This document shows positions 1 to 8,657 of a stretch of 8,657 nt of DNA, piece after piece; the first letter of the stretch is position 1; each line of letters starts with the position of its first letter. The position numbers and the translations under genes were made by a program. The notes under the pieces are model-generated. The model saw nothing but the letters and a program-made list of their open reading frames with translations. It was not told the DNA's origin and ran no database searches. This DNA is from a virus (lineage: Duplodnaviria; Heunggongvirae; Uroviricota; Caudoviricetes). Location of the stretch: the IMG/VR virus record IMGVR_UViG_2778261299_000009. The stretch is one strand, 5' to 3'.

Positions 1-26
1 CATATTATCTTTGTATCATTTCTGAT

Positions 27-1875
27 AGTTAACATTACAAGATATAAGTAATGGACGCACTCCCAATTAGTCTATTTAAATCGCCACGAGTTTAACTGAC
101 AACCCATGATCAATTATGAATTGCAACTATTTCTGTAGTCACTTTTGTGGGGACAGTCCACAAAACTGCCAACTTCCGCTTCTTGCTCTTAGCGGACATT
201 AGCATAGGCTATTTACCATAACGCCTCATTACGCGCACCGCCCAGACTGACTCAGCGCGTTTCTGGCATATCCCCGGTAAAACAAGTAACAAACCACCCG
301 AAAATGAACACCAGAAACGCGACTTAAGAATCTACCCTATGAATGGATATGCACTCAACCGAATCGATCTTGGTTTCAATCTTTTTTATCGGGATCAGGC
401 TTCTTTTTAGGTAACTTCGGGGGCTTAACTTGCTGATGACTTTGCGTTCGGCGCGTAAGCCAGGGATGGTCAGCTTTAGGTTTAACATAGTATTTTGAGC
501 GTAAATCAATACGGGCATTATCCACTCGTTCATGGACACTCTTTTCATCATCCAGTGGTATAGGCTCCGGGCCATCAACATACTTTTCCCAGCCCAGCGC
601 TTTCCCGTCATACAGAACGTTAATTTCACCGTCAAAGTTCTCGCATACAGTAACAACCGAATGCCTAAGTCGATATCCCCGGCCCTCACTGCGTACCTGA
701 AACGCACTGCTTTTGTACTGGAAAGTGAGATTTTTAGACAGAACGCGCTTCGCCTGTAGGCTGAAGATATAACCCAGTTCCTCTTCAGAATGGTGCACAT
801 CAAGATGAGCATTATCAGTAGTACGAGGCGACGTAGCGAACCGGTTGTTATAGGCTTCAATAAAGGTCGGCAACCATGCATTTGCTGTTTCAATATCACT
901 GATATTCTGAAGCCGCATTTCTTTGACCAGCCTGTCCTGTAGTGTCTGATTGGCGCGCTCTACCCGCCCTTTTGCCTGCGGGCTGTTGGCATGGATTGGC
1001 TCGATGCCCAGTGTCTTTATCGCACGAGTGAACTGGGTCAGCTCACCTTCCCGCTCTGGGTTATTTACCCTGAATATACTGTGTCTATCAGAGTAGAGAG
1101 CGAGCGGTACGCCATGATCATTAAGGTAACCCCGGAGGGTTTCCATGTAAGCCCGGGTTGTTTCAGCAGGCACAAAACGCAACGCCATCAACGCACTGGT
1201 GGCATCATCAATGAAAACGATCAGTGTACATCTGGGGCCTCGATTTTCAAACCAGTCATGAGGTGAGCCATCAATCTGGATCAGTTCACCGTAAGATGGT
1301 CGTCGCATGCGGCGTTGATATATACGGGCAATTTTACGACGGCGTTCACGCCATAACCCCTCTTCTATCATCCACTTTCTGAGAGTTTCAACGGATAAAG
1401 ATAAACCGTGTATCTCGCGCAATTTTTCGCACGCAAACGTAGGTCCAAAATCAGCGTAACGGCCTTTGAGGAGTGAAATTACTGTTGCTCTGAATTCAGT
1501 AGAAAAGGAATTATTAGGACGCTTTCCACGTCGGTGGGAAACCAGACCAGAAGGCCCTTCATTTCTATACCGTTGCACCAGACGTTTAACCTGCCGAATA
1601 GAAATGCCAATGCGTGCCGCAGCTTGTTCCTGAATAATCTGAAGTCGGTGGAGTTCCTTATGACTCATCGTAACAGTCTCTTTGATCATGAAAAATCCCC
1701 CAGAGAATTGTCTGGGGACATTTTAGAATGGTTCAAAGGGGACATTACAGCTTGGTGTTAACAATAGCCTGCTTCTCCGTGCCTTTCGGCACGTAAGAGG
1801 CTAACCTACATGTGTCTAGCATGAAATTGGCCTCAGATTAATGTTAAGCGTCTTGCAGGACGCGTAATGTTAACT
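27..1875 (-). mobile_element. Putative insertion sequence carrying an rve-type transposase; boundaries are tentative and set by a 12-bp inverted repeat
   Basis: AGTTAACATTAC at 27-38 matches the reverse complement of GTAATGTTAACT at 1864-1875, bracketing the transposase ORF. No target-site duplication is visible, and the repeat does not extend beyond 12 bp. Confidence 0.3.
376..1689 (-). CDS. DDE transposase with N-terminal HTH and integrase (rve) catalytic core, IS481/ISNCY-like
   Basis: 437-aa ORF with ATG at 1689 preceded by a GGGGGA ribosome-binding site. The N-terminus (GISIRQVKRLVQRY) looks like an HTH, the middle region has the look of a retroviral-integrase-type DDE core, and the C-terminus is a basic KPPKLPKKKP tail. 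Family is assigned from memory, not from a search. Confidence 0.85.
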   Translation of the reverse strand: MIKETVTMSHKELHRLQIIQEQAAARIGISIRQVKRLVQRYRNEGPSGLVSHRRGKRPNNSFSTEFRATVISLLKGRYADFGPTFACEKLREIHGLSLSVETLRKWMIEEGLWRERRRKIARIYQRRMRRPSYGELIQIDGSPHDWFENRGPRCTLIVFIDDATSALMALRFVPAETTRAYMETLRGYLNDHGVPLALYSDRHSIFRVNNPEREGELTQFTRAIKTLGIEPIHANSPQAKGRVERANQTLQDRLVKEMRLQNISDIETANAWLPTFIEAYNNRFATSPRTTDNAHLDVHHSEEELGYIFSLQAKRVLSKNLTFQYKSSAFQVRSEGRGYRLRHSVVTVCENFDGEINVLYDGKALGWEKYVDGPEPIPLDDEKSVHERVDNARIDLRSKYYVKPKADHPWLTRRTQSHQQVKPPKLPKKKPDPDKKD

Positions 1876-2023
1876 GGGGCTTTTCTCTATCTGCCGTTGG
1901 TGTCCATGCCCGAGGCAGATAGCCTCAAGCACCCGCAGTCATTCTACTTAACTAAGATTTCCCCGCAAACCGTTTTTGTCCAGCACAGTAAATATCCAAC
2001 TAAACCAATGGAGTTCGCTGTAT

Positions 2024-2203
2024 TTACCGCCAGTATTCAATGCACATGACCGCCATGAACACCCCTAAAAAAAGGGCATTTATATATCCAAATATTAATA
2101 TCAAAACATCAACTTTTTCCATATACCTTGCTGTGAAGATGATGGGCATACATGATGCGAACAACCAGAACGCAACAAACAAAAACTGCAATGCGTTTTT
2201 CAT
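2024..2203 (-). CDS. Small hydrophobic protein (59 aa from the ATG), probably two transmembrane helices; function unknown
   Basis: The track ORF 2024-2242 begins with GTG; an internal ATG at 2203 is preceded by AGGAGG (GTAGGAGGaataATG). The product MKNALQFLFVAFWLFASCMPIIF...LILIFGYINALFLGVFMAVMCI is strongly hydrophobic, and it sits in an AT-rich island. Confidence 0.35.
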   Translation of the reverse strand: MKNALQFLFVAFWLFASCMPIIFTARYMEKVDVLILIFGYINALFLGVFMAVMCIEYWR

Positions 2204-2457
2204 TATTCCTCCTACAATCAATGTGCAATTACATTTAAACACACCTCAATTTGGCCGGACATATAAATATCTAAACCAGAAAAAATCACTTACATAGCGT
2301 TACAAACTCTTTAGTCTAAAGGTTCATCGTAAAACATTCCCCATACTTATCAGTCCGTTCCGCGCCAGGTAGCTCATTGCCTTATCTGGCAACCTGTAAT
2401 CAGGTTTCCGCTTTTTCAGTTGGCTGGTCGTTTAACCGACATAGTTAATCCATTAAT

Positions 2458-2745
2458 CTAGTTGCCGGATGTTGGTGGATTTTCGCGTTTTAGTTGTTCA
2501 TAAAAGTGCACAGCTTTAACCAGTTCTTCTGATGTAACTGGGACTGGTGAGGCAGTGAATAAGGCCTGAATTTGATAGTTCGGCCTGTCGTTACAATCCT
2601 CTTTTTTCGGTACATATTTCCAGTCACCAGACCACTACTTCCCCTGAAAGTCCGTAACGCCTTTTTTCACGTAGCGATATCGCCATGCCACTGGTTTTGC
2701 TTGCCCCGCCGTTTCATGCCCTTCCTGATAATTAATCTCGCTCAT
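2458..2745 (-). pseudogene. Candidate pseudogene: about 95 codons interrupted by one in-frame TAG
   Basis: ATG at 2745 (GGGG-rich ribosome-binding site) gives MSEINYQEGHETAGQAKPVAWRYRYVKKGVTDFQGK, then TAG, then 58 more sense codons in the same frame (WSGDWKYVPKKEDCNDRPNYQIQALF...ENPPTSGN) with no start codon of their own. Confidence 0.3.
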
Positions 2746-2807
2746 TCATCGCCCCACTCATCACAATATGCTTCGACCGGAGTTTTTCCCGCTTCATAGT
2801 CATCACG

Positions 2808-2933
2808 CTAGGATTCGACATCAGCAGCACTTCCACCGCGTAACTCACCATAGTCCATTAATAGTTCATCCCGCTCTTCAAAACTGATGTTATATTTAGC
2901 TGAACAAAAATCAGCCACTTTGTTCTTCCTCAT
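2808..2933 (-). CDS. Small ORF (41 aa), hypothetical
   Basis: ATG at 2933 and TAG stop at 2808-2810. Product MRKNKVADFCSAKYNISFEERDELLMDYGELRGGSAADVES is protein-like, with a weak ribosome-binding site. It shares the N-terminal MRK-x-K with the neighbouring small ORF. Confidence 0.3.
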   Translation of the reverse strand: MRKNKVADFCSAKYNISFEERDELLMDYGELRGGSAADVES

Positions 2934-2982
2934 CGTCTTTTATTTCGTGGTATGAGTAATTGCAGTAGTTAAAGAAAATTTC

Positions 2983-3093
2983 TTATGCTCCGTCATGAAT
3001 TTCCTCAGGTGTTGCGTCATCGTCCACTTCGAATACATCCTCAAAATCTCCACCAGCTATTCCCGTTTCAATAATAATTTTGAACTTTCGCAT
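2983..3093 (-). CDS. Small acidic ORF (36 aa), hypothetical
   Basis: ATG at 3093. Upstream on the minus strand is AGGAGG, then a CCGCCC-GAAA-GGGCGG hairpin, then TAGTGAA and the ATG. Product MRKFKIIIETGIAGGDFEDVFEVDDDATPEEIHDGA. Confidence 0.35.
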   Translation of the reverse strand: MRKFKIIIETGIAGGDFEDVFEVDDDATPEEIHDGA

Positions 3094-3355
3094 TTCACTA
3101 CCGCCCTTTCGGGCGGCCTCCTGATGTTCTGAGGGTGCAGAAATCCATCCGGTTAAGTATTAAATTTTATTTACAGAACTGAATTTAATTATTCAGATAT
3201 ACGTATCTGTAGCCTTACGAATCTACTCACTGGATGCCTCTTTCATAAAAATAATCCAGTGGGTTTTATCGTTTTTTCCCTGTTCGTTGACAGATAACAG
3301 GTTTTCTGTCTGTCAGTGCCAGAATCTGGCTTACCGGTATTTGCGTTTCATTCCA

Positions 3356-3712
3356 TTAAAAAATCAGAACGCCGTGCGGCCTCAACACCCGAAAGGCTTC
3401 TTTAAATCTCTGTCGCGAATCATCACGCCAGGCATCTTTATTCAGCCGTCCATATTTCTTTCCCATCCAGGCGTTATCACCAACACTCTCAAGATGCGGA
3501 GGGTCTAATACAACCATCGAAAAAGATGCGTCTGCAAATGATAATGCACGAAAATCTGCGATAATGTCAGGGCTGATAATCAAGCGTCTCCCATTGCGTA
3601 ATGTGTATCCTTCTTTTCTGATATCGCTGAATATCGCCCGTTCGTCAGACTTATCGAACCAGAACATGCGGCTGCCACAGCACATATCAAGAATGGTTGC
3701 CGGTGCACTCAC
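3356..3712 (-). CDS. Minimal DNA methyltransferase (AdoMet-dependent, N6-adenine/N4-cytosine type), 118 aa, possibly truncated
   Basis: Motif I-like LDMCCGSR near the N-terminus and motif IV DPPH about 60 aa later. GTG start overlaps the upstream stop (GTGA coupling). No target-recognition domain follows; 29 sense codons continue in frame after the TAA stop. Confidence 0.7.
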   Translation of the reverse strand: MSAPATILDMCCGSRMFWFDKSDERAIFSDIRKEGYTLRNGRRLIISPDIIADFRALSFADASFSMVVLDPPHLESVGDNAWMGKKYGRLNKDAWRDDSRQRFKEAFRVLRPHGVLIF

Positions 3713-4131
3713 TGCGCCACGTCCTGAAAATTACCCTGATAGAAAGCCAGTATGCGCTGCATAACTTCGCTCTTCCGGCACTCGCGACAGATTATGTTTA
3801 GGCGACTGTCGTAGCGACGTATTTCTCCGTCAGGTGATGACCAGATAAGGTCCGGATCAACCACAGCAGGTTTCTTCACCTTTGCCCTCGAGAGTTTTTT
3901 GCGGGCGTTTTGCCAGTCCTTACGCGCCTGTTCAGAGGGGAATAACCCGTAGCCGGAGTTGTATACATCGCCACTGGCTACCAGCTCTCTGGCAAGAACG
4001 CTCATCAGATATCTAGTCGCACCTGTTTTAGCTTCCAGTTGCCGTAACGTCTCACGGCCGCTCTGGCGCACGAGTTCCACCACCTGCCATTTAATTTTTT
4101 CCCGCTCTTCTTGTGTAAAAACTTTTGCCAC
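3709..4131 (-). CDS. Hypothetical phage early protein (140 aa), possibly DNA-binding
   Basis: GTG start at 4131 preceded by AAGGGGGA. It lies between the replication initiator and the methyltransferase in the same operon. Basic, with a CRECRK motif; I do not recognise a family. Confidence 0.6.
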   Translation of the reverse strand: MAKVFTQEEREKIKWQVVELVRQSGRETLRQLEAKTGATRYLMSVLARELVASGDVYNSGYGLFPSEQARKDWQNARKKLSRAKVKKPAVVDPDLIWSSPDGEIRRYDSRLNIICRECRKSEVMQRILAFYQGNFQDVAQ

Positions 4132-4171
4132 AAGTCCCCCTTAAAATTACCTCATGACCTGAAATCAACAC

Positions 4172-5137
4172 TTATCCTCTGAAACCAGGCGGAATTTCTG
4201 TATCCGGTTCAGAAATATGATTAACACAACGCTGTACAGGTGAACGTCCCAGGCGGATGACCAGTTCGTCCCATTTTTCGCGGAGCTTTGACGGGCTCAT
4301 GATGTTTTTTACCCAGAATGGATCTCGCTGAACCCGACCAAACATTTCGCAAATTTGTCTGTGGCTTCTGCCATCCAGCATCCGCATTGTGCGCACGTCA
4401 TTGGCCCAGGCAGTCCAGTTAGGCTCTTTTGGTCGCATGATCTCGCCATCATCACTGGCTGCCTGTTCGTAGAGACCCACGATCCGCCCCCAGATCCACT
4501 GCGCACACGCCAAATCCTCCCTGCTACCCCACTGGCGTTTTTTCGCACTAAACACAACCGCGTCGGAGTTCCGGGTTAAAAAATCCTGTTCAGTCGTCTG
4601 CGGGTCCGGTTGCGAAGCTTCCGGACGAAAAGTGTTTTTATTCTCTGTAGTAATCTCTGTTGTATTCTCTGTAAGATCATCAGGCCATTTTGACCCGATG
4701 ACATTGGGTCGTTTTGAACCAATGGAGCGTTTCATTTTGACCTCTTCCATCGTGTCATTTTGACCTGATGGAGCGGCGCATTTTGAACCGATGGATTCGC
4801 TCAATTTGCCACCATCTAAAAGCTCGCTCCCATAGTTGATCGTGTAGAAATTGGTCATATCGCGCTTTGATTTATTGAGCTTTTCACAACGCAAAAGCCC
4901 CAGCGTTTTCAGACTTGCAAACGCGCGCTTTAACGTTGACTCTGACCAGAATGGGAACTGTTCCAGCCATTGTTCCGTTGTGTTATAAATCCAGCGAACA
5001 CCATCACATTCCATGCCGGAGTTGGTATCTCTCAACCAGTAGTGCAGTTGTTGCAAAACAATGGCTTCGTTTAAGCCAATTTTCATTGCCAGCTGCGTGT
5101 TTATAACCAGTGGGCGTTCAGCAAAAAGAAGGCTCAT
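4172..5137 (-). CDS. Phage replication initiator, lambda-O-like (replisome organiser)
   Basis: N-terminus MSLLFAERPLVINTQLAMKIGLNEAIVLQQLHYWL is typical of phage replication-initiator N-terminal domains. The middle of the gene encodes a repeated SIGSK peptide produced by the iteron array. I placed the start at ATG 5137; the track's start at 5191 is a TTG. Confidence 0.8.
   Translation of the reverse strand: MSLLFAERPLVINTQLAMKIGLNEAIVLQQLHYWLRDTNSGMECDGVRWIYNTTEQWLEQFPFWSESTLKRAFASLKTLGLLRCEKLNKSKRDMTNFYTINYGSELLDGGKLSESIGSKCAAPSGQNDTMEEVKMKRSIGSKRPNVIGSKWPDDLTENTTEITTENKNTFRPEASQPDPQTTEQDFLTRNSDAVVFSAKKRQWGSREDLACAQWIWGRIVGLYEQAASDDGEIMRPKEPNWTAWANDVRTMRMLDGRSHRQICEMFGRVQRDPFWVKNIMSPSKLREKWDELVIRLGRSPVQRCVNHISEPDTEIPPGFRG
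4642..4672. repeat. Three direct TCTCTGT repeats at 12-bp spacing next to the iterons
   Basis: TCTCTGT at 4642-4648, 4654-4660 and 4666-4672. Confidence 0.35.
4686..4816. repeat. Iteron array (5-6 direct repeats, about 23-bp period) inside the replication initiator gene; putative phage origin
   Basis: CATTTTGAC/ACC-N-GATGG units starting near 4686, 4710, 4733, 4756 and 4779, plus a degenerate unit near 4803; the spacing is about two helical turns. Confidence 0.6.
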
Positions 5138-5639
5138 AATTCCATCCAGCTTTTTGTTGGTATTGCTGTCGATACGCAAGTTTGAAAGCAATTGCTTTTT
5201 CTATAAGTTCGTCAGTTTCACGATCCACTACGGCAGGATCAGCAAAAAGCAGTCCGGACTCCACCACATCGCCATATTCTTTGTTTAACCCGGCGATCAT
5301 GCACGTGATGCTTTTTCCGTCAGTAATTTCACGATACAACCTGAAATCATTAATCCGGATAGCCTCCATAATTGCAGGCACTAGCGCCGTGAACTTTTCA
5401 CGCTTATCCCTGGTGTCGATAGCCTTCCAGCGTTCAAATATCTTCACTCGATTAACGCCAAGCGCTCGCTGATCAATCGCGCCACCTTCATATGTGACAC
5501 GCTGAACATCGATGTTCGGGCGCTCTTTCAAAGCCCAGAATGCTTCAGTGATTAATATCGTCGCCTGCTCCTGTGTCATTCCTGGTCGACATATCCAGGC
5601 ATCCAGAGCCTCACGAGCCTGTTCAGGAGTGATTTTCAT
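5118..5639 (-). CDS. YdaT-like protein (CII-position early regulator, so-called YdaT toxin family)
   Basis: 173 aa with ATG at 5639, immediately downstream of the Cro-like gene. The segment REKFTALVPAIMEAIRINDFRLY resembles the YdaT segment REKIQKLIPAILAILPRELRHRL as I recall it. Confidence 0.65.
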   Translation of the reverse strand: MKITPEQAREALDAWICRPGMTQEQATILITEAFWALKERPNIDVQRVTYEGGAIDQRALGVNRVKIFERWKAIDTRDKREKFTALVPAIMEAIRINDFRLYREITDGKSITCMIAGLNKEYGDVVESGLLFADPAVVDRETDELIEKAIAFKLAYRQQYQQKAGWNYEPSFC

Positions 5640-5853
5640 TGTTCAACCGCCCCGCCCGCTTCGTCTTACGATATTCATCATAAACTTTGGGATCATACTG
5701 AAGCTCCCCGCCAGATGCCTCCTGTAGACGCATCGCGCGACCTTCGGGAACTAAATCCCCTTTCCAGCTATAAAGCGAAGCCAAACGAATACCTGCTGCT
5801 TGTGCAAGTTTTGTTTTTGAACCGAAATACAAAAGAGCGTCAGTTTTAAGCAT
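5623..5853 (-). CDS. dicC: Cro-like (YdaS-family) DNA-binding regulator DicC
   Basis: 76 aa, ATG at 5853 preceded by AAAGGTG. It is divergent from the CI-like repressor, and the sequence matches my recollection of E. coli Qin DicC. Confidence 0.85.
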   Translation of the reverse strand: MLKTDALLYFGSKTKLAQAAGIRLASLYSWKGDLVPEGRAMRLQEASGGELQYDPKVYDEYRKTKRAGRLNNENHS

Positions 5854-5867
5854 TTAAAACACCTTTA

Positions 5868-5887
5868 TTGTTAGTCATAACTAACAA
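5868..5887. promoter_or_regulatory. Operator: perfect 8-4-8 palindrome TTGTTAGT-CATA-ACTAACAA
   Basis: Read directly from the sequence; it sits in the dicC-dicA intergenic region and overlaps the -10/+1 of the predicted dicC promoter. Confidence 0.5.
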
Positions 5888-5913
5888 GATAGATGTTAAC
5901 AAAAACATAGTCA
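5886..5913 (-). promoter_or_regulatory. Putative sigma70 promoter of dicC
   Basis: On the minus strand, -35 TTGACT (5908-5913), 16-nt spacer, -10 TATCTT (5886-5891). Confidence 0.4.
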
Positions 5914-5936
5914 ATACGATTTAGCATTAGCTAACT

Positions 5937-6344
5937 ATGGAAACAAAAAATTTAACTATCGGCGAACGCATCAGGTATCGTCGGAAAAACCTCAAACACA
6001 CCCAAAGGTCTCTTGCTAAAGCCCTGAAAATCTCCCATGTGTCTGTATCACAATGGGAACGGGGTGATAGTGAACCTACAGGGAAGAACCTTTTTGCCCT
6101 CAGCAAAGTATTGCAATGCTCACCAACATGGATTCTATTTGGCGATGAAGACAAGCAACCAACACCACCTGTTGAGAAGCCAGTTGCCTTATCCCCCAAA
6201 GAACTAGAGCTCCTTGAGCTGTTTAATGCACTGCCAGAATCAGAACAGGATACCCAGCTCGCCGAAATGCGAGCTCGAGTAAAAAACTTCAATAAACTCT
6301 TTGAAGAATTACTAAAAGCCCGTCAGCGGACAAATAAAAGATAA
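5937..6344 (+). CDS. dicA: CI-like HTH (XRE family) repressor DicA
   Basis: 135 aa with an N-terminal HTH (LKHTQRSLAKALKISHVSVSQWERG); divergent partner of dicC; matches my recollection of K-12 DicA. Confidence 0.9.
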   Translation: METKNLTIGERIRYRRKNLKHTQRSLAKALKISHVSVSQWERGDSEPTGKNLFALSKVLQCSPTWILFGDEDKQPTPPVEKPVALSPKELELLELFNALPESEQDTQLAEMRARVKNFNKLFEELLKARQRTNKR

Positions 6345-6405
6345 CATCATCAATGAGTTATCTTTTACCACATCAATTATGTTAGCTATAGCATACAAAA
6401 TCACT

Positions 6406-6434
6406 TGACCGATATGTTAGTCATGGCTAATCTT
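6406..6434 (+). promoter_or_regulatory. Putative dicB-operon promoter with an operator-like site
   Basis: -35 TTGACC (6406-6411), 17-nt spacer, weak -10 TAATCT (6429-6434). TGTTAGTCATGGCTAATC at 6415-6432 matches the intergenic operator at 14 of 18 positions. Confidence 0.35.
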
Positions 6435-6510
6435 GTTTGCATCAACACACCGCACGGTGTTCTCAGCAAACAGTTCCGCTACCCCAGCGTTAAGGGGAAA
6501 TGAGGTCAGC

Positions 6511-6666
6511 ATGGATACTATCGATCTTGGCAACAACGAATCTCTGGTGTACGGCGTGTTTCCAAACCAGGACGGCACGTTCACCGCAATGACGTATACC
6601 AAAAGCAAAACGTTTAAAACCGAAAATGGTGCCCGTCGCTGGCTGGAAAGAAACTCAGGTGAGTGA
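6511..6666 (+). CDS. ydfA: YdfA-like small protein (51 aa, DUF1391-type)
   Basis: ATG at 6511 preceded by TGAGGT; the track ORF 6433-6666 starts at a TTG. Product MDTIDLGNNESLVYGVFPNQDGTFTAMTYTKSKTFKTENGARRWLERNSGE. Confidence 0.8.
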   Translation: MDTIDLGNNESLVYGVFPNQDGTFTAMTYTKSKTFKTENGARRWLERNSGE

Positions 6667-6667
6667 T

Positions 6668-6796
6668 ATGGATTTCGACACAATCATGGAAAAGGCTTAC
6701 GAAGAATACTTCGAAGGCCTTGCCGAAGGCGAAGAAGCTCTCAGCTTCAGTGAGTTTAAACAGGCGCTTTCCAGTTCGGCAAAATCTAACGGCTGA
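6668..6796 (+). CDS. ydfB: YdfB-like small protein (42 aa)
   Basis: Below the track's length threshold. ATG at 6668, preceded by AGGTGAG, lies just after the ydfA stop. Product MDFDTIMEKAYEEYFEGLAEGEEALSFSEFKQALSSSAKSNG. Confidence 0.6.
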   Translation: MDFDTIMEKAYEEYFEGLAEGEEALSFSEFKQALSSSAKSNG

Positions 6797-6825
6797 TAAG
6801 CGAAACAGCACCGCGAGGAATCAGT

Positions 6826-7044
6826 ATGCAGAAACGAGAACCCGTCATCATCGCGCCAGACTATACCGATGATGAACTTTATGAGTGGATGCGCCAGAAA
6901 ATTAATGCAGCGCAGGATCTGAAATGGGCTAATGAAGCCAGGGCTAAGCAGGCTGAAAATCTGTCCGCTCTGGAGCAGGATATCACCAATCTGGAAAAAG
7001 CAGCGGCATTAAGCATTGCCAGAATGATTACATACCCGCGTTAG
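6826..7044 (+). CDS. ydfC: YdfC-like protein (72 aa)
   Basis: ATG at 6826 preceded by GAGGAA; the product has a coiled-coil-like C-terminus. Confidence 0.8.
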   Translation: MQKREPVIIAPDYTDDELYEWMRQKINAAQDLKWANEARAKQAENLSALEQDITNLEKAAALSIARMITYPR

Positions 7045-7384
7045 TAGCTAATCAACAAAGCTAAGGTTAGTAATTAAGGAGTTCTCCACGGGTGAGGTGG
7101 AGTGCGTGCGCCGGACACGGGTGCGCATCCGGAACTGACAGTTTACTGAAAGGATATTTCCCTGAAAAGTCAGACCATAACGCGAAAGCGCACGGCGAGG
7201 TAGCTGGTTCATAGATAGCCTGTCGTTAAATTTTCGTCGACCGTGCGCTTCCGGTTGTGGCAACCCGCGAAATGGCGCGGCGGTAAGTATGGCGGGGTTA
7301 TTCCTTCCCCGTTGAGGACACCGGGTTGTCAGGTTGACCATACGCTTAAGTGACAACCCCGCTGCAACGCCCTCTGTTATCAAT

Positions 7385-7442
7385 TTTCTGGTGACGTTTG
7401 GCGGTATCAGTTTTACTCCGTGACTGCTCTGCCGCCCTTTTT
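7385..7442 (+). ncRNA. dicF: DicF small RNA (ftsZ-targeting sRNA of Qin-type prophages)
   Basis: TTTCTGGTGACGTTTGGCGGTATCAGTTTTACTCCGTGACTGCTCTGCCGCCCTTTTT matches DicF as I recall it, and it lies between ydfC and dicB as in K-12. GGCGG/CCGCC stem plus a T-run at the 3' end. Confidence 0.7.
7399..7442 (+). terminator. Intrinsic terminator-like 3' end of DicF
   Basis: GC stem GGCGG (7400-7404) pairing with CCGCC (7432-7436), followed by TTTTT (7438-7442). Confidence 0.45.
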
Positions 7443-7611
7443 AAAGTGAATTTTGTGATGTGGTGAATGCGGCTGAGCGCACGCGGAACAGTTAAAACCA
7501 AAAACAGTGTTATGGGTGGATTCTCTGTATCCGGCGTTAATTGTTAACTGGTTAACGTCACCTGGAGGCACCAGGCACTGCATCACAAAATTCATTGTTG
7601 AGGACGCGATA

Positions 7612-8657
<1,046 letters not shown>

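Follow-up and report, generated by a model that had tools for sequence, protein, structure and literature searches.

In phage lambda, the gene for the replication initiator O is followed by P and then by ren in the early-right operon. The C-terminal domain of lambda O is the part that contacts P. Lambda Ren is a protein of 96 amino acids (aa) that overcomes Rex exclusion and has a presumed role in replication; it coexists with P and is dispensable for growth. The ren gene is transcribed from pR together with O and P and has been described as 'likely involved in DNA replication', and the Rex proteins show two-hybrid interactions with both O and Ren (10.1101/2021.04.19.439022). Here we describe the corresponding region of a stretch of Caudoviricetes DNA of 8,657 nucleotides (nt) (IMG/VR record IMGVR_UViG_2778261299_000009), hereafter called the window, to which all positions refer as a whole. 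In this region a lambda-O-like initiator gene is followed by two short overlapping open reading frames (ORFs), one for a 140-aa protein and the other for a 118-aa methyltransferase.

Two further described systems are close to this gene pair. The Rac prophage protein YdaW (PF06163, 'LygF' in annotation) is a full-length match to the Pfam DUF977 model, has the 140-141 aa typical of that family and occurs in a replication-module context, as does the 140-aa protein of the window. In Rac-type modules the DUF977 gene comes after ydaU-ydaV-DUF1627, whereas in the window it stands directly after the initiator gene. The methyltransferase has relatives among the genes of Salmonella phage vB_SosS_Oslo, Listeria phage A118 and Streptococcus phage T12, which belong to the same family of small enzymes.

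We consider it highly probable that the window carries a decaying Qin-type prophage in which an intact Ren-like DUF977 gene is followed by a methyltransferase gene that has been killed by a nonsense codon, a +1 frameshift and two substitutions, and that the overlap between the two ORFs is ordinary packing. Both genes are already catalogued, and the finding as such is ordinary.

The Ren-like DUF977 gene and its replication module

The 140-aa protein, previously listed as unknown, is an intact, full-length DUF977 protein of the lambda Ren family. Its residues 1-136 align with positions 1-134 of the 134 in the Pfam DUF977 profile (PF06163; 101.5 bits against a cut-off of 22.1, E=5e-29), which describes a family of 869 clusters whose members are nearly all 140-141 aa in length. 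The protein also falls into the same PHROG as lambda Ren, phrog_142 ('Ren-like exclusion protein'), at E=1.6e-47, against 1.6e-41 for Ren itself. BLASTP against lambda Ren aligns a C-terminal motif that is conserved in both proteins, N-I/L-x-x-x-E-C-R-x-S-x-x-M-x-R-x-L-A-x-Y, with 10 of 20 residues identical (E=2e-6), and the N-terminal helix-turn-helix (HTH) region can be aligned as well. DUF977 has been reported as a winged helix (PMC2686095), and the fold of the window protein consists of an N-terminal winged helix (three helices followed by a beta hairpin) and a small C-terminal domain, with no ATPase. The protein is basic, as had been stated from the start, with an isoelectric point of 9.7. 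Its gene lies directly after the replication genes of the early-right operon, which is the position of ren in lambda.

The two proteins differ in several respects. The window protein is 44 aa longer than lambda Ren and carries an extra N-terminal helix, a basic linker of about 30 residues and a beta insert, and lambda Ren, unlike the window protein, scores below the Pfam DUF977 threshold. The Rex-exclusion phenotype is that of lambda Ren, and for DUF977 proteins it would be a putative one. We infer from lambda that the Ren-like protein would be an accessory DNA-binding protein that is not essential and accompanies the replication module. The annotation name 'LygF' appears to be a name without a function, and a PDB sequence search with DUF977 returned no informative relative. 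A match to a helicase loader had been allowed for in the initial annotation and would have changed its account of this protein; instead, the protein belongs to the DUF977/Ren family, and searches of Pfam, NCBIfam and PHROGs gave it no resemblance to P, DnaC, IstB or DnaB.

The gene upstream of the pair, which ends 40 nt before it and had correctly been placed there as a replication initiator, encodes a true initiator of the lambda O type. Over 148 aa, the C-terminal domain of this initiator shares 34% identity with the corresponding domain of lambda O (E=2e-26). The gene also contains an array of iterons with a consensus near CATYNGGYCATTTTGACCYGATG that resembles the ori-lambda type and is the probable origin. 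RefSeq names the product either 'hypothetical' or 'phage replication protein O'.

In lambda, P comes after O, whereas no P comes after the O-like initiator of this module. The RefSeq annotation of identical copies contains no P, DnaC, YdaV or DnaB gene, the window itself not having been scanned with those profiles, and the methyltransferase has no helicase-loader match in Pfam, NCBIfam or PHROGs. A single DnaC/IstB-family protein turned up in the window; encoded at 7908-8642, it is the IstB of an IS21-type element, and a naive search of the window for a DnaC-like loader would match it. Of 80 contigs with this initiator type, 70 lack any homologue of P, DnaC, YdaV or DnaB within 4 kb, and the isolated phages HannyBb, mEp460_ev081, Tritos and Evi have the same order of O followed by DUF977. 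These two observations argue for a regular module type, and the absence of a loader is normal for it rather than a gap peculiar to the window. Thus, the initial annotation was right that the expected helicase loader is not recognisable, but this is no anomaly because initiator-then-DUF977 is a common layout. A first scan for related loci, made with the initiator alignment, covered only relatives of at least 95% identity, and so informs on allele states and not on diversity.

The methyltransferase pseudogene and its family

The 118-aa methyltransferase is a pseudogene. The N-terminal sequence motifs of a class I S-adenosylmethionine (SAM)-dependent methyltransferase are present in the ORF, namely the glycine-rich loop of motif I (DMCCGSR, residues 9-15), an acidic residue after strand 2 (D30) and motif IV (DPPH, residues 70-73), in agreement with the two motifs that had been recognised initially. 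The ORF ends 45 residues past DPPH, close to the earlier estimate of about 40. Its matches to profile libraries are nevertheless incomplete or marginal: the Pfam Methyltransf_11 score is 21.6 bits, barely above the threshold of 21.2, and the ORF spans only positions 52-165 of the 229 in phrog_954, which falls short of a full-length family match.

Downstream of the TAA that ends the ORF, the frame stays open for 29 codons, WNETQIPVSQILALTDRKPVICQRTGKKR, until a further TAA at 3266-3268. These codons align residue for residue with the conserved C-terminal segment WNETQIPVSQILALTD.KP.I.QRTGK of intact homologues, which have a conserved Lys where the window has the stop. Compared at DNA level with the intact E. 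coli 2014C-3599 allele, the window shows an A-to-T change that turned AAA into TAA and one extra G in the G/A run at 3278-3280. The resulting frameshift, 26 codons after the nonsense codon, leaves the conserved DKTHWIIF.KE tail and enters the premature TAA at 3266-3268. When TAA is changed to AAA and one G is deleted, an ORF of 162 aa is restored that ends at a TAG at 3223-3225, as in intact alleles, and that is identical to the homologue P0002 at 142 of 162 residues. The suspicion of a nonsense-truncated gene, first raised by the open frame past the stop, is therefore borne out by alignment with full-length homologues of 157-162 aa, in which the Lys at the position of the TAA is invariant. 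The frameshift and two damaging substitutions, F69L (next to DPPH) and G102R, had been missed.

Conservation and structure prediction both indicate what the truncated product has lost. In a set of 39 diverse homologues, the two substituted positions are each conserved in at least 90%, K119, W120 and P138 are invariant, and T150 and K157 are nearly so; the latter five residues are all absent from the 118-aa ORF. The AlphaFold2 model of the intact homologue P0004 (predicted local distance difference test score, 92.4; predicted template modelling score, 0.88) has a helix (127-131) and two strands (140-144 and 150-156) beyond the truncation point. It follows that the product would be without two strands of the core, and the complete seven-stranded Rossmann-like core cannot be formed from an ORF that stops at residue 118. 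The product most probably neither folds nor methylates.

Degraded copies of the gene recur in related modules. Methyltransferase remnants are present in 23 of the 80 contigs with this initiator type, and none is intact; 13 have TAA at codon 119 and seven retain only residues 1-62, as does phage HannyBb. Across 74 species-level loci, in comparison, 69 have intact ORFs of 150-251 aa and five are degraded. Two independent copies in other E. coli prophage contexts are also labelled as defective by the NCBI Prokaryotic Genome Annotation Pipeline (PGAP): the one in strain C11 (locus coordinates 1554-1998), which is 98.7% identical, as 'frameshifted; internal stop', and the one in O157:H7 Rafaela_II (3069-3542) as 'internal stop'. 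The lesions differ between the copies. One might speculate that repeated loss in E. coli reflects a cost of the enzyme, for example a conflict with methylation-dependent restriction.

The window copy is a dead member of a widespread group of very small phage class I SAM-dependent methyltransferases with DPPH as motif IV. A search with the read-through sequence returned 6662 relatives, of which the close full-length ones have 157-162 aa; members of a longer subclass, at about 248 aa, are extended at the C-terminus. At E <= 0.001 the family comprises 2038 clusters at 50% identity. Copies occur in 254 phage records, with hosts that include Streptococcus, Vibrio, Acinetobacter, Porphyromonas, Listeria, Gordonia, Lactobacillus and Enterococcus. 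The window copy is 82-87% identical to the 162-aa members of E. coli, whereas identity to the E. coli protein among phages of Proteobacteria, Firmicutes, Actinobacteria and Bacteroidota is 45-65%, which is unusually high across phyla for a phage accessory gene without a target-recognition domain. The window copy and the family have the same motif order (I, DPPH, FKWxE, THW..F.K). Unlike intact members, the window copy breaks off at residue 118 of 162, has a frameshift and carries mutations at F69 and G102.

Alignment and the model of P0004 indicate that the intact family, at about 155-162 aa, is all core and has no target-recognition domain. Thus, the idea of an unusually small orphan enzyme holds for the family, but the window copy is not a working enzyme. 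Profile matches include phrog_954 'DNA methyltransferase' and the PADLOC models MTase_II PDLC03288 (E=1e-72) and oMTase PDLC03730, with intact P0004 covering positions 3-163 of the 169 in PDLC03288. Pfam sees the family only marginally, through Methyltransf_11, and NCBIfam has no specific model for it. DPPH is a form of the [DNS]PP[YFWH] motif, which implies N-methylation of an exocyclic amino group. We infer that the target of the intact family, as the product of a phage early gene, is likely to be DNA. The RNA (D/N)PP(F/Y/H) amino-methyltransferases Trm11, TrmN, RsmC and RsmD have extra RNA-binding domains (THUMP, N-terminal duplications) and a sequence identity of only 13-19%, which marks a likeness in chemistry and not membership. 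No solved structure or characterised member was found in a PDB sequence search with the intact methyltransferase and its profile or in the literature, and a literature search on phrog_954, DPPH orphan phage methyltransferases and the smallest or minimal methyltransferases found no functional study of the family. The N-terminal extensions of some homologues of 200-300 aa were considered as a conserved DNA-binding domain, but this was rejected because they are heterogeneous and resemble mis-called starts or fusions.

Other readings of the gene pair

Several observations count against the view that an intact Ren-like gene stands beside a dead methyltransferase. In most genomes, PGAP calls the 118-aa ORF an ordinary coding sequence (WP_001310834.1). 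Across 384 records the truncated allele keeps 99-100% identity, and the fragment retains its SAM-binding motifs and a usable ribosome-binding site. The DNA-methyltransferase label of the intact family derives solely from library names and the DPPH motif, and no functional study of DUF977 or LygF was found in the literature. The first three of these points would favour a 118-aa ORF that is under selection, either as a functional minimal methyltransferase or as a SAM-binding regulatory fragment. This alternative can also draw on the 4-nt overlap and a plausible Shine-Dalgarno sequence (AGGA, 9-10 nt upstream of the GTG start), in addition to the retention of motif I, the motif II acidic residue and DPPH. 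However, the fragment is without invariant K119, W120 and P138 and the last two beta strands, and it carries F69L and G102R. The second lesion, downstream in the same frame, makes no difference to a product that is already truncated; lesions of this kind usually mark a gene still in decay. Furthermore, each module-linked copy is degraded differently, and the flanking genes are pseudogenes. We therefore hold selection on the fragment to be extremely unlikely. The 543-nt methyltransferase stretch (3170-3712), stop codon included, has at least 99% identity in 384 E. coli records, and vertical inheritance of a cryptic prophage accounts for this most simply, although the conservation by itself would also fit a retained function. 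The same records bear on whether the stop codon and the frameshift are sequencing or assembly errors in an intact gene. The frameshift does lie in a G3A6 homopolymer context that is error-prone on some platforms, but the 384 records are independent complete genomes, an alignment shows the deposited phage PhiR42_1 to be identical across both lesions, and the TAA is a substitution and not a homopolymer error, all of which make such errors a practically negligible explanation.

Two other proposals concern the DUF977 protein as well. The methyltransferase family has no target-recognition domain, DUF977 has a winged helix that might supply one, and the GTGA overlap is kept unchanged in the intact pair of E. 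coli 2014C-3599; the two proteins might therefore form, or have formed in the past, a two-subunit enzyme. Against this, a Ren/DUF977-like ORF lies within 4 kb upstream in only 13 of the 74 methyltransferase loci and is directly adjacent in three, and intact methyltransferases occur in Gram-positive, actinobacterial and Bacteroidota phages where no DUF977 is seen. DUF977, for its part, tracks the replication module regardless of the methyltransferase, being present without it in 47 of the 80 contigs. The overlap is no better evidence, since the methyltransferase start overlaps the stop of whichever upstream gene is present, including unrelated ones, by 4 nt in 29 of 69 intact loci (a count for which the start sites are approximations). 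On this basis a two-subunit enzyme appears very improbable. It is also conceivable that DUF977 stands in for lambda P or DnaC as the helicase loader or adaptor that the module lacks, since it occupies the position of P in lambda, in a module type that has no recognisable loader in most contigs and shows the O-then-DUF977 order in isolated phages. However, it is a small winged helix with no ATPase and without similarity to known loaders, its homologue lambda Ren coexists with P and is dispensable, and DUF977 is also found in 29 modules that encode the DnaC-like protein YdaV, which argues that it is no alternative to a loader. We consider this role very unlikely.

The preferred reading thus remains that of an intact Ren-like gene and a methyltransferase pseudogene in a decaying prophage. 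Both ORFs and the GTGA overlap lie exactly where the initial annotation had placed them, but its description of a translationally coupled pair stands only for the overlap. The coupling is generic operon packing of this methyltransferase gene, a habit seen in many of its loci, and not evidence of a functional pair; in the window it was inherited from an intact ancestor, as ordinary phage operon packing. DUF977 and the methyltransferase meet at a mosaic junction, which corresponds to the boundary between ren and the nin region in lambda, and do not make up a two-component system. In E. coli 2014C-3599 (locus coordinates 2111-3746), genes for a 'beta family protein' and an 'sce7726 family protein' lie on facing strands beside the intact pair, and these two may constitute a defence-type moron.

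Prophage context and the DnaT-like initiator tail

The window corresponds to the early-right operon of a decaying, cryptic E. coli prophage, a lambdoid one of the Qin type. On the minus strand, the gene order is dicC/cro, a YdaT/cII-like gene, the lambda-O-like initiator with its internal iterons, the Ren-like DUF977 gene, the methyltransferase and a decayed nin-like region (Table 1). RefSeq copies of identical DNA list dicA, dicC, a YdaT-family gene, the 321-aa gene, the DUF977 gene and a class I SAM-dependent methyltransferase gene, followed on the 3' side by two pseudogenes of the 'frameshifted; internal stop' type and then by a partial ISNCY transposase. On the far side of dicA are ydfA, ydfB, ydfC, DicF and dicB (RefSeq copies, Rfam, Pfam), and the presence of DicF and DicB confirms the Qin/dic identity of the prophage. 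Positions 1-7841 are 100% identical to many E. coli chromosomes, and PhiR42_1, a phage of ECOR13, has 99.8% identity over the region. Rfam contains no RNA family that matches within 3356-4131, and promoter and terminator scans of 2900-4300 gave nothing convincing.

Table 1. Positions of the features discussed, numbered on the whole window
Feature	Position	Strand	Basis or description
Ren-like / DUF977 gene	3709..4131	-	140 aa, GTG start, intact
Truncated methyltransferase ORF	3356..3712	-	118 codons + TAA, GTG start; N-terminal 73% of ancestral gene
GTGA overlap, methyltransferase GTG on DUF977 TGA	3709..3712	-	ORF calls and sequence
Whole methyltransferase pseudogene	3223..3712	-	Ancestral 162 codons + TAG + 1 inserted base
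Nonsense codon TAA in place of Lys119 (AAA in intact allele)	3356..3358	-	Alignments with intact homologues
+1 frameshift site, GGG+A6 against GG+A6 in intact allele	3278..3280	-	DNA alignment; lesion repair
Lambda-O-like replication initiator	4172..5137	-	321 aa from ATG; phrog_391 E=1e-91; RefSeq coding sequence limits
DnaT-like C-terminal tail of initiator, QRCVNHISEPDTEIPPGFRG	4175..4234	-	14/20 identical to last 20 residues of E. coli DnaT
Iteron array, probable origin	4678..4809	.	Five imperfect ~23-bp direct repeats, 23-24 bp spacing, inside initiator gene
DicF small RNA	7386-7437	+	Rfam, 76.7 bits
DicB	7612-7800	+	Pfam, E=2e-40

The whole nin-like region 3' of the methyltransferase is decaying. 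Directly next to the methyltransferase, at about 2324-2745 and 2911-3093 on the minus strand (coordinates converted from the locus of the RefSeq copy), are two PGAP pseudogenes, of which the first, 'frameshifted; internal stop', is annotated as a hypothetical protein and the second, 'internal stop', as a DUF7167 protein. Further along, a 437-aa ORF at 376-1689 on the minus strand has HTH and rve_3 integrase-core domains; in identical RefSeq DNA it is a partial ISNCY-family transposase pseudogene with a shorter coding sequence. A match to the sok antitoxin RNA at 1763-1934 on the minus strand (Rfam, 104 bits), near the small ydfW gene, suggests a hok/sok-type locus in the prophage remnant. At the other end of the window, within 7842-8657, the minus-strand ORF mentioned above encodes an IstB ATPase of the IS21 family (E=3e-110 to Pfam IstB_IS21). 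The match to other E. coli chromosomes stops at 7841, just past dicB and inside ydfD, and the IS21-type element is therefore a strain-specific insertion.

The C-terminal tail of the initiator resembles that of a host protein. It matches positions 160-179 of the NCBIfam DnaT profile, and outside the tail the initiator has no similarity to DnaT. A scan of viral contigs for IPPGFRG followed by a stop codon yielded 105 initiators that end in such a tail and have at least one downstream ORF, although these loci are largely redundant E. coli prophages and the counts are not independent. The tail-bearing initiators include O-like, YdaU-like and other N-terminal types. The DnaC-like gene for YdaV comes next in 48 of the loci, and the other 57 are without a recognisable loader; DUF977 occurs within three downstream ORFs in 76 of the 105, including the 29 that also have YdaV. 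That the tail simply replaces a loader was considered and rejected, since the 48 loci with YdaV mean that it is not limited to loader-less modules. The order of a tail-bearing protein followed by a DnaC-like gene mirrors the host dnaT-dnaC operon. According to a structural paper of 2026, how DnaT recruits DnaB/DnaC is still unknown (PMC13377028). We tentatively put forward, as a possibility that we regard as rather doubtful, that the tail (...SEPDTEIPPGFRG-COOH) serves DnaC-type loaders as a docking peptide, and that it would here recruit host DnaC-DnaB, with the Ren-like DUF977 protein as a module-linked accessory.

For genome annotation, these results mean that the treatment of the methyltransferase gene is inconsistent, since PGAP treats it as a pseudogene in some genomes and, in most, as coding for a protein of 118 aa, and a correction is worthwhile. 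Only two points, the family of small methyltransferases and the DnaT-like tail, might be worth further work. If the docking proposal is true, the tail points to the element by which DnaT recruits DnaB/DnaC, and DUF977 and the methyltransferase remain ordinary. Common as it is to phage initiators and host DnaT, the tail offers a lead on how helicase loading is recruited.

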